Part shown: in pieces, positions 35,620 through 39,408 of the stretch | Numbering within the stretch: position 1 is the stretch's first letter | Layout of the letters: each line of letters begins with the position of its first letter | From: an uncultured delta proteobacterium | GTDB taxonomy: Bacteria > Myxococcota > UBA727 > VGSZ01 | DNA: 64,000 nt | Assembly: GCA_963775425.1 (NCBI GenBank) | Contig: CAVZJB010000016.1 | Location: 256,001-320,000 of the forward strand | Reading direction: 5' to 3' | Program-made: the position numbers and the translations under genes | Notes under the pieces: model-generated | What the model saw: only the letters and a program-made list of their open reading frames with translations | Databases searched by the model: none | Told to the model about the DNA's origin: nothing

Positions 35620-35641
35620 GCGGGGGCGAGCCCCGCCCTAC
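35620..35641 (-). repeat. GTAG-type REP-like palindrome overlapping the dikinase stop codon
   Basis: GTAGGGCGGGGCTCGCCCCCGC; similar to 50208-50231. Confidence 0.5.
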
Positions 35642-38600
35642 TTGTCCATCAAGATGACGCGGGCCTGGACGATGCGCCACTCCCCGTTTTGCCGGGCGAC
35701 CTCCATGTCGACGGCGTAGCCCTTGCCCGGCTCGACGACGTCATGGAAGAACTTCTCGGTCTCGAGCACGATCTCGCGCAGCTTCTGCATGTCCGCGTCG
35801 GACACCGGGACGCCGCCCACCGTGACCGAGGCGTCGACGTCGGCGGGCGTGCCGTCGACGTGGTTCACCTCGGCCCCGCCCTGCTTGATGACGCCCTCGG
35901 TGGCCTTGCCGCCATCGACGCCGCCGCCGAAGCCCTTCACGAGCTGGAACGTGACCTGGTTGCGGGCGCCGTTTTCGACGTTGCGCGAGATCATCACGCC
36001 GGAGATGTCCGGCGTCATGCACGCCTGCACCACCACGGTGGGCCCGATGTGCTTCAGGAAGAACTGCTCGGCCGCGTTGTTCTCGACGGGCTCGGGCATC
36101 CACGTGGACTCGACGACACCGATGGCCGCCTTCACGCGCGCCGGACCCATGAACGCGTTGTGCGCCTCGAGCGCCTTCTTGAGCGCGGCGGGGTCGCCGC
36201 TGTGGCGCGCCGCGTCCAGCTTGGCGAACTCCGCGTCGACCTTGTCCTTGCCGAGCATCTCGTTGGCGATCTTGCGATCGACGTAGCTCTCGTACTGGCC
36301 GGCGCCGCTCTTCCCGGGCCTGTCCTCGCCGGTGAAGCTAGAGCGGAAGATGATGGACCCCGTCTCCGCCTCCGACAGCGCGGGGTTCTTCATGATGTTC
36401 TTGTAGAGGGCCTCGCCCTGCGGCGTGAGCTTGCCCGACGCGGAGTCGATCAGGCTCCTCGTCAAGCCCTCGCGCGTCACCTTCTGGAGCTCTTCCCGCG
36501 TGCGCTTGCGGTAGCGCGGGTTCGTGTAGAACTCGCTCTGCAGGAAGTTCCTGTCGTCGACGACACCGACCTTGGGATCCTTGTCCCAGACGTCGTCCCA
36601 GGCCTGCTCGAGGGTGCGCCCGTCGACGAGCTTGGCGCCGCGCAACATGTCGCGGATGTCGCCGGGCGTGATCTCGCTGCCCTTGGGGACGTACTTGCCG
36701 AGCACCGGGTGCTGCGACAGGAGCGCGAGCACCGTGCCCTTCTCGCCCGCGAGGTGGCGCGCGCGCACACCGAGCTTGGCGAGCTCCTCGAACGTGGGCA
36801 CGCCGCGACCGATGCCCTTCACCTGCTCCTCGGGGATGTACAGCTCCACCTCACGCGTCTTGCGCTGCGCGTTGATGATGGCGTCGTGCTTGGCGGCCAC
36901 GGCGAAGGACTCGCCGTCGCTGGTGGGCTTGAGGTACGTGATCTTGCGGTTGACGCCGGGGCGCAGCTTGTCGAGCGCCTCCTGGGTGTTCCCGACGCGG
37001 CCCTCTTCGCGCGCCTTGTCGAGCGTCATCATCACGAAGCCGTCGCCGCTGTCGTCGACGTAGAGGCCGCCCTCCTTCTGCGCGTTCTTGAACAGCTCGG
37101 CGTATTTGGTGCGCAGCTCGGGCAACGCCACCACGGGGATGCCGTTGTTCATCGCGTACATGTTCAGGTGGCTGTTGCCGCCCGGGGCCTGCTCGGTGTC
37201 GACGAAGAGGCCGCCGACGGCGACCATCTTCTTCTCCTCCAGGTGATAGAGCACCGCGAGCTGGTCCTTGCTCGTGCCCATGGCTGCGAGGTCCTTGCCG
37301 TTCTCCGCCGTCACCACCGAGGTGAACACCACGGGGCCGATGCCGTTCAACACGCGCATGCCCTCGACGTTCTCCACCTTCCTCGGCCCGATCTTTTCGT
37401 GAAGCCCGACGCGCATGCCCTTCTCGGCGAGCGCGGTGGCGTAGTGAAGCGGCGACTGCTTGATGAACTGATCGATGAACTCCGGGTCGATCTGCATGCC
37501 GCCGCGGGCCACCTCGGCGGCGCGCTCGTCGGCGAAGGCGCGGATGTTCTGCACCACTTCGCGCACGGCGACGTACGCCGTGGACATGGCCTTGCGGTAG
37601 TCGTCCTCGCTGCACTTGCCCTTGGCGAGCAGCGCGTCGACGCCGGCGAGCGCCTTTTGCAGCCCGCCGGCGGGGGCGGCGGCGGCGTCGGCGTCGGAGC
37701 GGATGTCGCCGAGGCCGCTGGCGACGGCGGAGCGCAGCGCGGTCTGGAGCGCCAGGAGGCACTCGGCCTTGTCGCCGTCGGTCTTGAGGGTGCCGACGCG
37801 GTCGACGGCGGCGCCCAGGTGCTCGTTGGTGAGCCGCAGGAGCTGCGCGTCGAGCTTGATCATCTCGTGGCGCTCGAACCCGCTCTTGGCCTGGTAGATG
37901 GCGTCCTTGAGCGCGAGCCGCGCCTCACCGAGCTCGCGCAGGGTGCCCTTGTCGTTCTTGGCGTCCAGGGCCGCGATGACGTCGGCGACCTCGGTGTAGG
38001 CGGGGCCGGCGCGGAAGAGGTCGTGCTCGAGGGTCGCCGCCGTGGGTTGGCCGGCGCAGACGGCGACGTAGGTGCGCGCCGCCATCTCGATGTTGGCCTC
38101 GACGTTGTGGCCGAGGTCCTTGGTGCACGTCCCCTTGAGCAGATCGCGCAGGCCGTCGGCGAGCGCGGGGAGCTGTTCGGGCTTGTTGCTCCCGGCCGAC
38201 AGCGCCTCGAGGCCTTCGGCGAGCTTCTTGCCCGAAGCGTCGCCCGTCTTGAGCGCGGCCGTGGCGAACGCGAGGGCCTTGCCCGCCTGCTCGCCGTCCC
38301 CCTTGCGCGCCGCCCCCATCGCGCTCGTGAGCGCCGTGAAGATCGTGCAGCGCTTGTCCCGCGGCCCGACGGGGAACATCCACTCCTCGATGAAGAGCTG
38401 GATGTTCCTCGGCGTATCGCGCGAGAAGTTGTGGTGGATGGAGGAGTACGGCGACGCGGTGGCGCCCGGCGGCTTCTCCTTCCACACCCACTTCGTGGGG
38501 CTGCCGTACGACGTCTCGCGCTCGGCGGTGCGGCCCTGGTCCGTGAGGATGGACGAGATGGCGTTGCGGGCCTCGAAGATGCCGTTGGTGGACGAGATGG

Positions 38601-39408
38601 GGTGCGAGGAGATGAGCTCGCGCAGCAGGGCGTAGTCGCGGCCGCTCTGGGCGTCGCCCTTGGTGAGGTCCACGCCGGACAGGAGCACGTGCTGCTCCGC
38701 GAGGATGGCGAGGCCGAAGCGGTCGATGCGGGTGGTCCAGCCGTCCTCGCGCTGGTTGGCGACGTCGGTGCGGGCGCGGAACTGCAGGAGCGCGTCCATC
38801 ATGGCGTCGTCGCGCAGCGCGCCGTTGGGGATGAGCCCGAGGCCGACCACGGACATGTCGGACACGTCGAAGAAGTGGGAGGTGCCGGCGACGAGGTCCT
38901 CGGCCCGCTTCTTCTGCTTGGTGACGCGCCCCTCGTACTCGCGCTGGAGGATGTCGGCGGTGACGGTGTTGTTGTTGAACGGCTTGTACCAGTCGAACTG
39001 GCCGGCGCCCTCGAGCGTGTACTCCTTCTCGTCGGTGGCCCGGAGGAAGTCGATGTCCTTGCCCACCTCGTCGGAGATCTTGCGCAGCGTGGCCTCATCC
39101 ACCGCGAAGCCGCTCTTGTCCGCGATCAGGGTGGAGACGGCGCTGCGGCGCTCGGTGACGGCCGGATCGCCCTTGCCACGGCCCTCGAGGCCCATCTTGC
39201 CGTCGCGATCCTTGTGCTGCGTGACCACGTCGATGAGCTTCTGCGCGGCCGTCCGCGCCGCCGCGTCGCGCTCGGCCGCGGGGACGGCGGCGGGCGGGGT
39301 CACGTCGATGGTGGCGGGCGTCTCGGAGGTCGCCGGCTTGTCGGTCCCCGTGGGCTTGTCGGGGGTCTGCGGCACCTGCGGCCGGAAGCGGTCGTTGATC
39401 GTGGGCAT
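35638..39408 (-). CDS. PEP/pyruvate-binding-domain (dikinase) protein with substrate domain - phospho-His domain - ATP-grasp order
   Basis: GNSHLNMYAMNNGIPVV (His domain) precedes AGEKG, FRSSFTGED, SGAGQYES, VVVQ, SGVMIS, DME, IVQAR (PPDK_N ATP-grasp); AGGA RBS. Confidence 0.88.
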   Translation of the reverse strand: MPTINDRFRPQVPQTPDKPTGTDKPATSETPATIDVTPPAAVPAAERDAAARTAAQKLIDVVTQHKDRDGKMGLEGRGKGDPAVTERRSAVSTLIADKSGFAVDEATLRKISDEVGKDIDFLRATDEKEYTLEGAGQFDWYKPFNNNTVTADILQREYEGRVTKQKKRAEDLVAGTSHFFDVSDMSVVGLGLIPNGALRDDAMMDALLQFRARTDVANQREDGWTTRIDRFGLAILAEQHVLLSGVDLTKGDAQSGRDYALLRELISSHPISSTNGIFEARNAISSILTDQGRTAERETSYGSPTKWVWKEKPPGATASPYSSIHHNFSRDTPRNIQLFIEEWMFPVGPRDKRCTIFTALTSAMGAARKGDGEQAGKALAFATAALKTGDASGKKLAEGLEALSAGSNKPEQLPALADGLRDLLKGTCTKDLGHNVEANIEMAARTYVAVCAGQPTAATLEHDLFRAGPAYTEVADVIAALDAKNDKGTLRELGEARLALKDAIYQAKSGFERHEMIKLDAQLLRLTNEHLGAAVDRVGTLKTDGDKAECLLALQTALRSAVASGLGDIRSDADAAAAPAGGLQKALAGVDALLAKGKCSEDDYRKAMSTAYVAVREVVQNIRAFADERAAEVARGGMQIDPEFIDQFIKQSPLHYATALAEKGMRVGLHEKIGPRKVENVEGMRVLNGIGPVVFTSVVTAENGKDLAAMGTSKDQLAVLYHLEEKKMVAVGGLFVDTEQAPGGNSHLNMYAMNNGIPVVALPELRTKYAELFKNAQKEGGLYVDDSGDGFVMMTLDKAREEGRVGNTQEALDKLRPGVNRKITYLKPTSDGESFAVAAKHDAIINAQRKTREVELYIPEEQVKGIGRGVPTFEELAKLGVRARHLAGEKGTVLALLSQHPVLGKYVPKGSEITPGDIRDMLRGAKLVDGRTLEQAWDDVWDKDPKVGVVDDRNFLQSEFYTNPRYRKRTREELQKVTREGLTRSLIDSASGKLTPQGEALYKNIMKNPALSEAETGSIIFRSSFTGEDRPGKSGAGQYESYVDRKIANEMLGKDKVDAEFAKLDAARHSGDPAALKKALEAHNAFMGPARVKAAIGVVESTWMPEPVENNAAEQFFLKHIGPTVVVQACMTPDISGVMISRNVENGARNQVTFQLVKGFGGGVDGGKATEGVIKQGGAEVNHVDGTPADVDASVTVGGVPVSDADMQKLREIVLETEKFFHDVVEPGKGYAVDMEVARQNGEWRIVQARVILMDK

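Follow-up and report, generated by a model that had tools for sequence, protein, structure and literature searches.

A predicted His-swivel dikinase of Myxococcota with a conserved SCP2-fold partner protein

Introduction

Dikinases that carry phosphate on the histidine of a swivelling domain are few, and each known acceptor domain stands for a separate biology: pyruvate, starch, rifampin or phenols. A gene for a further predicted member of the group, P0002, lies at positions 35638-39408 of a stretch of 64,000 nucleotides (the window, to which all positions refer unless another contig is named) from an uncultured delta proteobacterium of the Myxococcota (assembly GCA_963775425.1, contig CAVZJB010000016.1, positions 256,001 to 320,000). 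The gene is proposed here, at a rough probability of 0.6, to encode the catalytic subunit of an undescribed, multi-subunit His-swivel dikinase system, whose acceptor is possibly hydrophobic.

The closest described enzymes differ in how they arrange their parts. Potato glucan, water dikinase (GWD1) is composed of two CBM45 modules, a central domain, a loop of four residues, the His domain and an ATP-binding domain, and the central domain is all-alpha, with 20 helices in three clusters (crystal structures 9HA9 and 9QVI), the last of which (helices 18-20) face the catalytic His (PMC13553574). In an earlier review, GWD and phosphoglucan, water dikinase (PWD) were still structurally unsolved (PMC12892837). 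Small hydrophobic molecules are the targets of the two-component dikinases HpeHI, CreHI and PpsAB, each of which is divided among proteins (PMC12167813). In the acceptor domain of a Bacillus relative of rifampin phosphotransferase (RPH), one Asp and a pair of adjacent His residues are reported to be important (PMC13553574).

The dikinase gene and its domains

The region from 35638 to 39408 is a real, well-conserved gene for a protein of four parts: a tail, a helical region, a His domain and an ATP-grasp domain (Table 1). The open reading frame (ORF) runs on the minus strand for 1256 codons, from an ATG at 39408 to a stop codon at 35638-35640, and its third-position GC content of 0.95 is typical of real genes in sequence of 71% GC. 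A TTG 15 codons upstream could serve as an alternative start; the ATG is taken as the start because 26 of the 28 aligned homologues begin with Met-Pro at this position and an AGGA lies just 5' of it. No paralogue was found in the same genome by tblastn. A sequence-only reading of the window had given the same gene boundaries, together with a P/T-rich start of 45 residues, a helical N-terminal region, a phospho-His motif, a C-terminal ATP-grasp domain and no phosphoenolpyruvate (PEP)-binding barrel, and all of these are borne out by the results in this section.

The presumed catalytic center is His747. The His motif GGNSHLNMYAMNNGIP is present, with His747 and its neighbours invariant in 28 of 28 sequences, and the surrounding stretch APGGNSHLNMYAMNNGIPV is invariant or nearly so across the same set. 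The motif is retained in distant members of the family, including P0098, P0074 and P0075. In the AlphaFold2 (AF2) model of residues 640-1256, a strand and a loop lead to a short helix that opens at His747 and is followed by a further strand, and this strand-loop-helix arrangement matches that described for swivel domains (PMC13553574, PMC12167813). Comparison of the His domain by hhalign with canonical PEP-utilizers of related genomes gave an E-value of 3.7e-4 and a probability of 36% over 78 columns, and comparison with a bacterial family of GWD1_pHisD type gave an E-value of 2.3e-3 and a probability of 13% over 66 columns, with the His aligned in both cases. These values were obtained with a 70-sequence family alignment, and a smaller alignment gave weaker values for both. 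We infer a much diverged swivel domain that is slightly nearer to the canonical type.

The C-terminal part of the protein is an ATP-grasp domain. Pfam PPDK_N (PF01326), the sole Pfam family found in the dikinase, matches residues 1013-1250 with an E-value of 2e-16 and 60.6 bits (cut-off 27). A profile built from 28 family members matches PEP synthase and rifampin phosphotransferase entries of the PDB over the ATP-grasp part only (E-values of 5.5e-12 to 6e-7), and the motifs RSSFTGEDRPGKSGAGQYES and AVDMEVAR...IVQARV are aligned there with those two enzymes' nucleotide and metal motifs. The AF2 model of residues 640-1256 has a predicted local distance difference test (pLDDT) score of 80.3, and its best Foldseek matches are to rifampin phosphotransferase's ATP-grasp domain (5hv3, 5hv1 and 5hv6, E-value about 3e-10), followed by PEP synthase 2ols, HpeI 9goj and PPDK 1kbl, among 24 matches at E<=1e-3. 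The NCBIfam PEP synthase models likewise match the ATP-grasp part only, far under their cut-offs (27 bits versus 883), and no PEP-binding barrel family was found in the dikinase by Pfam at E<=1.

Two insertions vary within this domain. A helical insert of ~50-70 residues follows the GAGQYES motif (residues ~1042-1090, or columns about 1400-1470 of alignment A1) in about one third of the family, including the protein of the window, and is missing from the other members. Five of the 60 homologues carry a LysM (CBM50) domain within the N-lobe of the ATP-grasp domain, and this insert was confirmed in all three of those scanned, with 25.6-26 bits against a cut-off of 20.9.

Residues 46-675 form an all-alpha region that is presumed to bind the acceptor, and is referred to here as the N-domain. 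The AF2 model of residues 46-680, computed with 16 sequences, has 27 helices with a mean pLDDT of 85.7 and a predicted template modelling score of 0.84, and the region is ~630 residues in length. In the family alignment, R87 and R88, A280-R281-N282, H325-H326-N327-x-S329, R497, R623 and D627 are invariant, as are D641, D646-Q647, K650 and H655-Y656, and SIHHNFSRD, LGEARLAL... and HE.IK.DAQL are among the most conserved motifs. With so many invariant polar residues, the region is more suggestive of an active site than of a scaffold.

The N-domain has no Pfam family, and no relative in the PDB was found by single-sequence or profile search. When an N-domain profile was compared to 1.84 billion representative proteins, 50 proteins matched at E<=1e-3, and those examined are all members or fragments of the dikinase family itself; two weak, short matches (P0103 and P0104) were checked against Pfam only. 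The most distant full-length members (P0098, P0090, P0096, P0099 and P0074) likewise end in PPDK_N. Foldseek returned nothing at E<=1e-3 for the N-domain model, whose 635 residues exceed the length up to which single domains are dependably detected, and the model's fold matches extend to a generic four-helix bundle and nothing beyond. A search of the ESM Atlas gave only one unnamed Myxococcota cluster, with a score of 0.75.

The tail that precedes the N-domain is probably disordered. Its 45 residues include 10 P, 8 T and 6 A (24 of 45), and it differs in length and sequence among homologues, with the Met-Pro start kept. No signal peptide is evident from reading the sequence by eye.

Table 1. 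Positions of the dikinase gene, its encoded domains and the linked genes in the window.
Feature	Position	Strand	Basis
Dikinase gene P0002, 1256 aa, stop codon included	35638..39408	-	ORF and translation
P/T/A-rich variable tail, aa 1-45, with conserved MP(I/T) start	39274..39408	-	Composition, homologue alignment
All-alpha N-terminal region, presumed acceptor-binding domain, aa 46-675	37384..39273	-	AF2 model, invariant columns
Putative divergent phospho-His swivel domain, aa 676-800	37009..37383	-	Motif, AF2 model, hhalign
Codon of catalytic candidate His747	37168-37170	-	Invariant in APGGNSH motif
ATP-grasp (PPDK_N) nucleotide-binding domain, aa ~860-1256	35641..36831	-	Pfam PF01326, PDB profile, Foldseek
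SCP2-fold protein, 112 aa, directly downstream of the dikinase, predicted dikinase subunit	35268..35606	-	Pfam SCP2, linkage, complex prediction
Conserved 73-aa protein, directly upstream of P0062	39495..39716	+	ORF clustering
P0062, 563-aa partner with invariant Cys425/His474/Asp491	39723..41414	+	Linkage, invariant columns, hhalign

Conserved partner proteins

The dikinase belongs to a conserved module of four genes, which also encodes an SCP2-fold protein, P0062 and a 73-residue protein. The module was compared across 15 loci from species-representative genomes, all of which are Myxococcota or 'Deltaproteobacteria' metagenome bins. PADLOC and NCBIfam searches of the module proteins, the 73-residue protein among them, gave nothing except a sub-threshold UbiT match for the SCP2-fold protein; an identity as UbiT was rejected, given a score of 21.8 against a cut-off of 46.9. 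P0062 and the 73-residue protein have no paralogue in their own genome by tblastn, and the same search found only a weak second SCP2.

The SCP2-fold protein matches Pfam PF02036 with an E-value of 3e-11 and 43.9 bits (cut-off 21.3). Its gene lies downstream of the dikinase in 11 of the 15 loci, which are all of those with enough downstream sequence, as the remaining four stop at or within about 300 nucleotides of the end of the dikinase gene. A complex of the N-domain (alignment A2) and the SCP2-fold protein (alignment A5) was predicted with a score of 0.79 (0.81, 0.78 and 0.79 in separate runs), compared to 0.02 for the best control. Of 80 solved complexes, 58 attain the mark used for this score, as do two of 110 mismatched pairs; these counts are a rough guide here since custom alignments were used. 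The runs share at least 85% of their contacts, and the SCP2-fold protein has a pLDDT of 88.

In the predicted complex, the SCP2-fold protein contacts residues 529-601 of the model, or 574-646 of the protein, which make up the last long helix and a short helix before the His domain and include the invariant D574, R623, D627, P642 and D646. On the SCP2 side, the contacts involve residues 1-4 and 67-89, and nine of the 18 interface residues are invariant, compared to 15 of 112 overall (hypergeometric p 2.7e-5). The prediction supports docking of the SCP2-fold protein on the last helix before the His domain. In GWD1 it is the final helices of the central domain that are turned to the His, and by analogy the SCP2-fold protein would be placed at or beside the presumed transfer site.

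A homologue of P0062 is present in 11 of the 15 loci in three arrangements: upstream and divergent in the window and in L001-L003, upstream and co-directional in L006-L010, and downstream in L012-L014. All 11 members retain Cys425, His474 and Asp491, in the pattern G-x-G-x-C...HGW...DRTW. Pfam Transglut_core (PF01841) matches weakly in two of the 11 members (best E-value 0.038), and hhalign with Transglut_core proteins of related genomes gives a probability of 54% and an E-value of 1.3e-4, with the Cys aligned. No PDB sequence match was found for P0062, which on these alignments probably has a transglutaminase- or papain-like fold. The 73-residue protein was detected in seven of the 15 loci, each time adjoining the P0062 homologue, by ORF clustering with a filter on third-position GC that may miss some copies.

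The linkage of P0062 to the dikinase extends to one natural fusion. P0038, a protein of 2062 residues encoded on a contig of 442 kb, carries a P0062-like part at residues 513-898 (40% identity, E-value 1e-85), followed by the dikinase at residues 923-2062. The fusion is seen at the protein level, and may be a merge made in gene calling. Residues 1-512 of P0038 are a further N-terminal region of ~510 residues with no Pfam family, in which a Cys...GH...D pattern noted by eye is reminiscent of a second papain-like domain.

Comparison with described dikinases

The sequence-only reading had compared the protein to GWD and PWD, by which starch is phosphorylated in plants, and one part of that comparison stands. 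The order of acceptor region, His domain and ATP-grasp domain is indeed that of GWD1, whereas PPDK and rifampin phosphotransferase have other orders (PMC13553574), and in GWD1, as in the dikinase, an all-alpha domain directly precedes the His domain (PMC13553574). A presumed transfer of the beta-phosphate via phospho-His would also be shared with GWD and PWD (PMC13553574).

The remainder of that comparison was not upheld. No homology of the N-terminal region to GWD was found, given that the profile search described above recovered the family alone and that Pfam gave no match, and a literature search found nothing on the GWD motif to which the reading had likened such conserved motifs as SIHHNFSRD. 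Fold searches with the 635-residue N-domain model gave no row for 9HA9 or 9QVI, entries whose presence in the libraries was not established. A GWD-type His domain is not supported, as Pfam GWD1_pHisD (PF22973) has no match at E<=10, either in residues 640-1256 or in a search of the whole genome in which another gene did match. A glucan substrate is not supported either: no glucan-metabolism genes are found among the neighbours, and no carbohydrate-binding module, including CBM45 and CBM20, was found in the dikinase by Pfam at E<=1, although the presence of CBM45 in Pfam was not checked. The predicted SCP2 subunit and the Cys/His/Asp partner are likewise not known for GWD, and the dikinase is bacterial and limited to Myxococcota in what was searched. 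In short, the domain order is alike, but no kinship to GWD was detected beyond the shared superfamily.

Nor is this order special to plants, as the sequence-only reading had implied. A second bacterial family, in which GWD1_pHisD precedes PPDK_N in proteins of about 700-750 residues, is found in the same genome and in other Myxococcota. Its local member, L016 (contig C16, 874072-877266), has an ORF at 550-2883 (+) with a weak GWD1_pHisD match (E-value 1.7e-3) followed by PPDK_N, and the gene is also given as C16:875572-876849. A GWD1_pHisD match was found in 10 of 301 Myxococcota genomes, in four of them over the Pfam cut-off, with ORFs of about 690-790 residues and one of 347. Like the dikinase, this family occurs in Myxococcota and has its His domain before an ATP-grasp domain, which is related to that of the dikinase (hhalign probability 94%, E-value 1e-7), and the two families are related only there. 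Unlike the dikinase, it has the His motif PQTYLSHVALKARQ rather than APGGNSHLNMYAMNNG, along with a motif RSSxxxEDLxGFxGAGL, its N-terminal region is unrelated, it has no SCP2 or P0062 neighbours, and it is often fused to extracellular-type domains. The order seen in GWD has therefore arisen, or persists, in at least two unrelated families of bacteria.

The longer relatives in this second family were observed separately. A search with a protein of GWD1_pHisD type among longer proteins gave 18 bacterial proteins and no named GWD. The longer relatives, P0109-P0121 among them, are fused to GH11, CBM2, CBM10, Lamin Tail Domain (LTD), FG-GAP/VCBS or dockerin domains: P0107 (1420 residues) combines a GH11 xylanase with CBM2, CBM10, LTD and PPDK_N, and others have FG-GAP/VCBS repeats and dockerin. 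Since a dikinase needs ATP, its union with secreted parts that bind polysaccharides is odd. Another member, L028 (G061:C44, ORF 451-2514 (-)), has a lipoprotein-like start by eye, in which a hydrophobic stretch ends in Cys.

Other likenesses are to the rifampin phosphotransferase group and to PEP synthase. RPH's ATP-grasp domain is the closest solved domain to that of the dikinase by Foldseek, and a helical acceptor domain is combined with a swivel His domain in RPH, HpeHI, CreHI, PpsAB and BsPPS (PMC12167813, PMC4844700). Some dikinases of the RPH type have separate protein components (PMC12167813, PMC4844700). Read as a cycle, the three domains follow one another as they do in the dikinase; the linear order is permuted, with the ATP-grasp domain first in RPH and last in the dikinase. 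The dikinase also differs from RPH in the SCP2 fold of its predicted extra subunit, and fold searches gave no match of its N-domain to the rifampin-binding domain. With PEP synthase and PPDK, the dikinase shares the PPDK_N ATP-grasp domain and a swivel motif of the GG-x-(T)SH...GIP type, but it lacks their PEP/pyruvate-binding TIM barrel and has another domain order.

Proposed mechanism and alternative explanations

The domain identities, the invariance of His747, the gene linkage and one natural fusion are observed; we infer the chemistry, the role of the SCP2-fold protein and the nature of the acceptor. By analogy to PEP synthase, PPDK, rifampin phosphotransferase and GWD, the C-terminal ATP-grasp domain would bind ATP, and His747 on the divergent swivel domain would take the beta-phosphate, with the gamma-phosphate leaving as inorganic phosphate and AMP being formed. 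The His domain would then swing to an acceptor site built by the last helices of the ~630-residue all-alpha N-domain, where the dedicated SCP2-fold protein would dock, probably presenting or enclosing the acceptor. The putatively transglutaminase-like P0062, with its Cys/His/Asp set, and the 73-residue protein, which travel with the dikinase, would work with it. The invariant His325-His326 pair is a candidate for a role like that of the His pair in the Bacillus enzyme, but this likeness is only a lead.

The leading guess for the acceptor, suggested by the SCP2 partner, is a hydrophobic small molecule or lipid, because the SCP2 fold has a known role as a lipid carrier. A more specific version is doubtful: that the SCP2 subunit would act as a carrier that holds a lipid or lipid-linked acceptor, such as a sterol, a polyprenol or a polyprenol-linked precursor containing N-acetylglucosamine (GlcNAc), at the phospho-His site, in one pathway with the Cys/His/Asp enzyme and with LysM reflecting the sugar head group. 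If true, this would be the first 'lipid, water dikinase', and a new kind of dikinase machine. What the family contributes is an acceptor domain that is large, well conserved and of no known fold family, together with a predicted SCP2 subunit and a linked Cys/His/Asp enzyme. Naming its acceptor would bring a new phosphorylation reaction to light and could help to read the central domain of plant GWD.

Several results weigh against the proposal of a multi-subunit His-swivel dikinase with a hydrophobic acceptor. Neither Pfam PF00391 (PEP-utilizers) nor PF22973 detects the His domain, even at E<=10, and the hhalign probabilities of 36% and 13% are low. Fold searches gave no match of the N-domain to the rifampin-binding domain, an absence that does not exclude a relation. 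The score of 0.79 for the complex expresses model confidence and is no measurement of binding, and invariant residues are not significantly overrepresented on the dikinase side of the predicted interface (five of 22, compared to 74 of 635; p 0.10). Because the conserved SCP2 patch is the predicted protein interface rather than a demonstrated lipid cavity, the SCP2-fold protein could be purely structural or regulatory. The LysM insert speaks less for a lipid than for the cell wall or a glycan that contains GlcNAc. P0062 is absent within the flanks, of at least 6 kb, of L004, L005 and L015; for L011 the sequence is too short for a judgement.

Those three loci also bear on a different use of the phosphate, in which phospho-His747 would pass it to P0062, to the 73-residue protein or to another protein and so regulate activity, in the manner of enzyme I of the phosphotransferase system or of a mycobacterial PPDK-derived kinase. 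Such protein-directed transfer would fit the tight linkage to P0062, the one natural fusion and the presence in the module of a conserved 73-residue protein of no known family, and a regulatory role has been reported for a PPDK-derived kinase (PMC13400623). It is considered unlikely, as P0062 is missing from loci with ample flanks, and the large, highly conserved N-domain, rich in invariant polar residues, resembles an active site made for a defined ligand. Slightly less likely again is a role of the dikinase as an effector, secreted or injected along with the Cys/His/Asp partner and directed at prey or competitors, with its N-terminus as export signal and the small neighbours as chaperone or immunity proteins. 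Myxococcota include predators, and the disordered tail with no obvious signal peptide, the Met-Pro start conserved in the dikinase, P0062 and the SCP2-fold protein, the papain/transglutaminase-like catalytic set of P0062 and the further ~510-residue N-terminal region of the fused P0038 could all be read as favouring export, as could two genes of the type III export-gate family FHIPEP in the genome. FHIPEP is uninformative, however, being found in 348 of the 401 phylum-sample genomes as well as in 24 of 25 carriers of the dikinase, a tally that includes genome G195, which is flagged as unpublished. The Met-Pro start occurs on the small SCP2-fold protein as well and is perhaps a mere habit of start context; a tightly docked SCP2 subunit, as modelled, would suit an enzyme complex better than a chaperone, PADLOC gave no matches, and the surroundings are of a housekeeping kind, with no secretion, mobile or immunity-like genes.

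The least probable of the explanations considered is a bacterial counterpart of GWD and PWD, a glycan, water dikinase that would act on an alpha-glucan or on a GlcNAc polymer such as peptidoglycan or chitin, with the N-domain in the role of the GWD1 central domain. It would account for the GWD1 domain order, for the all-alpha domain placed directly before the His domain and for the LysM (CBM50) insert in five of 60 homologues, and the fold matches of the N-domain, limited to a four-helix bundle, would be compatible with it. The evidence given above on the His domain speaks against it, since GWD1_pHisD has no match at E<=10 and the motif (GG-x-SH...GIP) lies slightly nearer to PEP-utilizers (E-value 3.7e-4) than to the GWD1_pHisD-type family (2.3e-3). 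So do the N-domain profile, which found nothing outside the family in 1.84e9 representatives, the lack of a carbohydrate-binding module in the protein of the window and of glycogen or starch genes nearby, and the presence in the same genome of a distinct family that does match GWD1_pHisD. An ATP-dependent enzyme would also be hard to place at the cell wall.

The Met-Pro starts were noted in their own right. Those of three of the four module proteins (MPYT.., MPRIQ.. and MPTIN..) are kept in homologues, and N-termini of the form MP[ITVAL][IRQNT] number 53 among 3806 long ORFs of the genome, several of them on long proteins with low-complexity starts. As an export signal, 'MPI' was rejected, given that MPYT begins the small SCP2-fold protein too.

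Distribution and genomic surroundings

A word-indexed search gave 60 homologues of the dikinase at 37-72% identity, and all named sources are Myxococcota or 'Deltaproteobacteria' metagenome bins. At E<=1e-10, the N-domain profile matches 26 of 401 sampled Myxococcota genomes, in 18 of 154 genera and mostly in one copy, and the carriers span seven GTDB families besides that of the window. The family is so far confined to Myxococcota.

In the window, the dikinase is surrounded by housekeeping and regulatory genes. The neighbours encode a GAF-HD protein, a bactofilin-like protein, PhyH, Crp, a PfkB kinase, a nucleoside phosphorylase and acetyl-CoA synthetase, as well as MetRS, RlmN, isocitrate dehydrogenase, acyl-CoA dehydrogenase and two LTD proteins; secretion, mobile, immunity-like and glucan-metabolism genes were looked for in this neighbourhood, and none were found. 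The gene for the PhyH-family dioxygenase (34500-35249 (-)) adjoins the SCP2 gene on the same strand, but was rejected as a member of the module, as it has no counterpart in the other 15 loci. The Lamin Tail Domains are carried by two large, adjacent ORFs at 48122-50056 (+) and 49902-53111 (+), one of which also has a PPC pre-peptidase domain, and the products of both are probably secreted or surface proteins.

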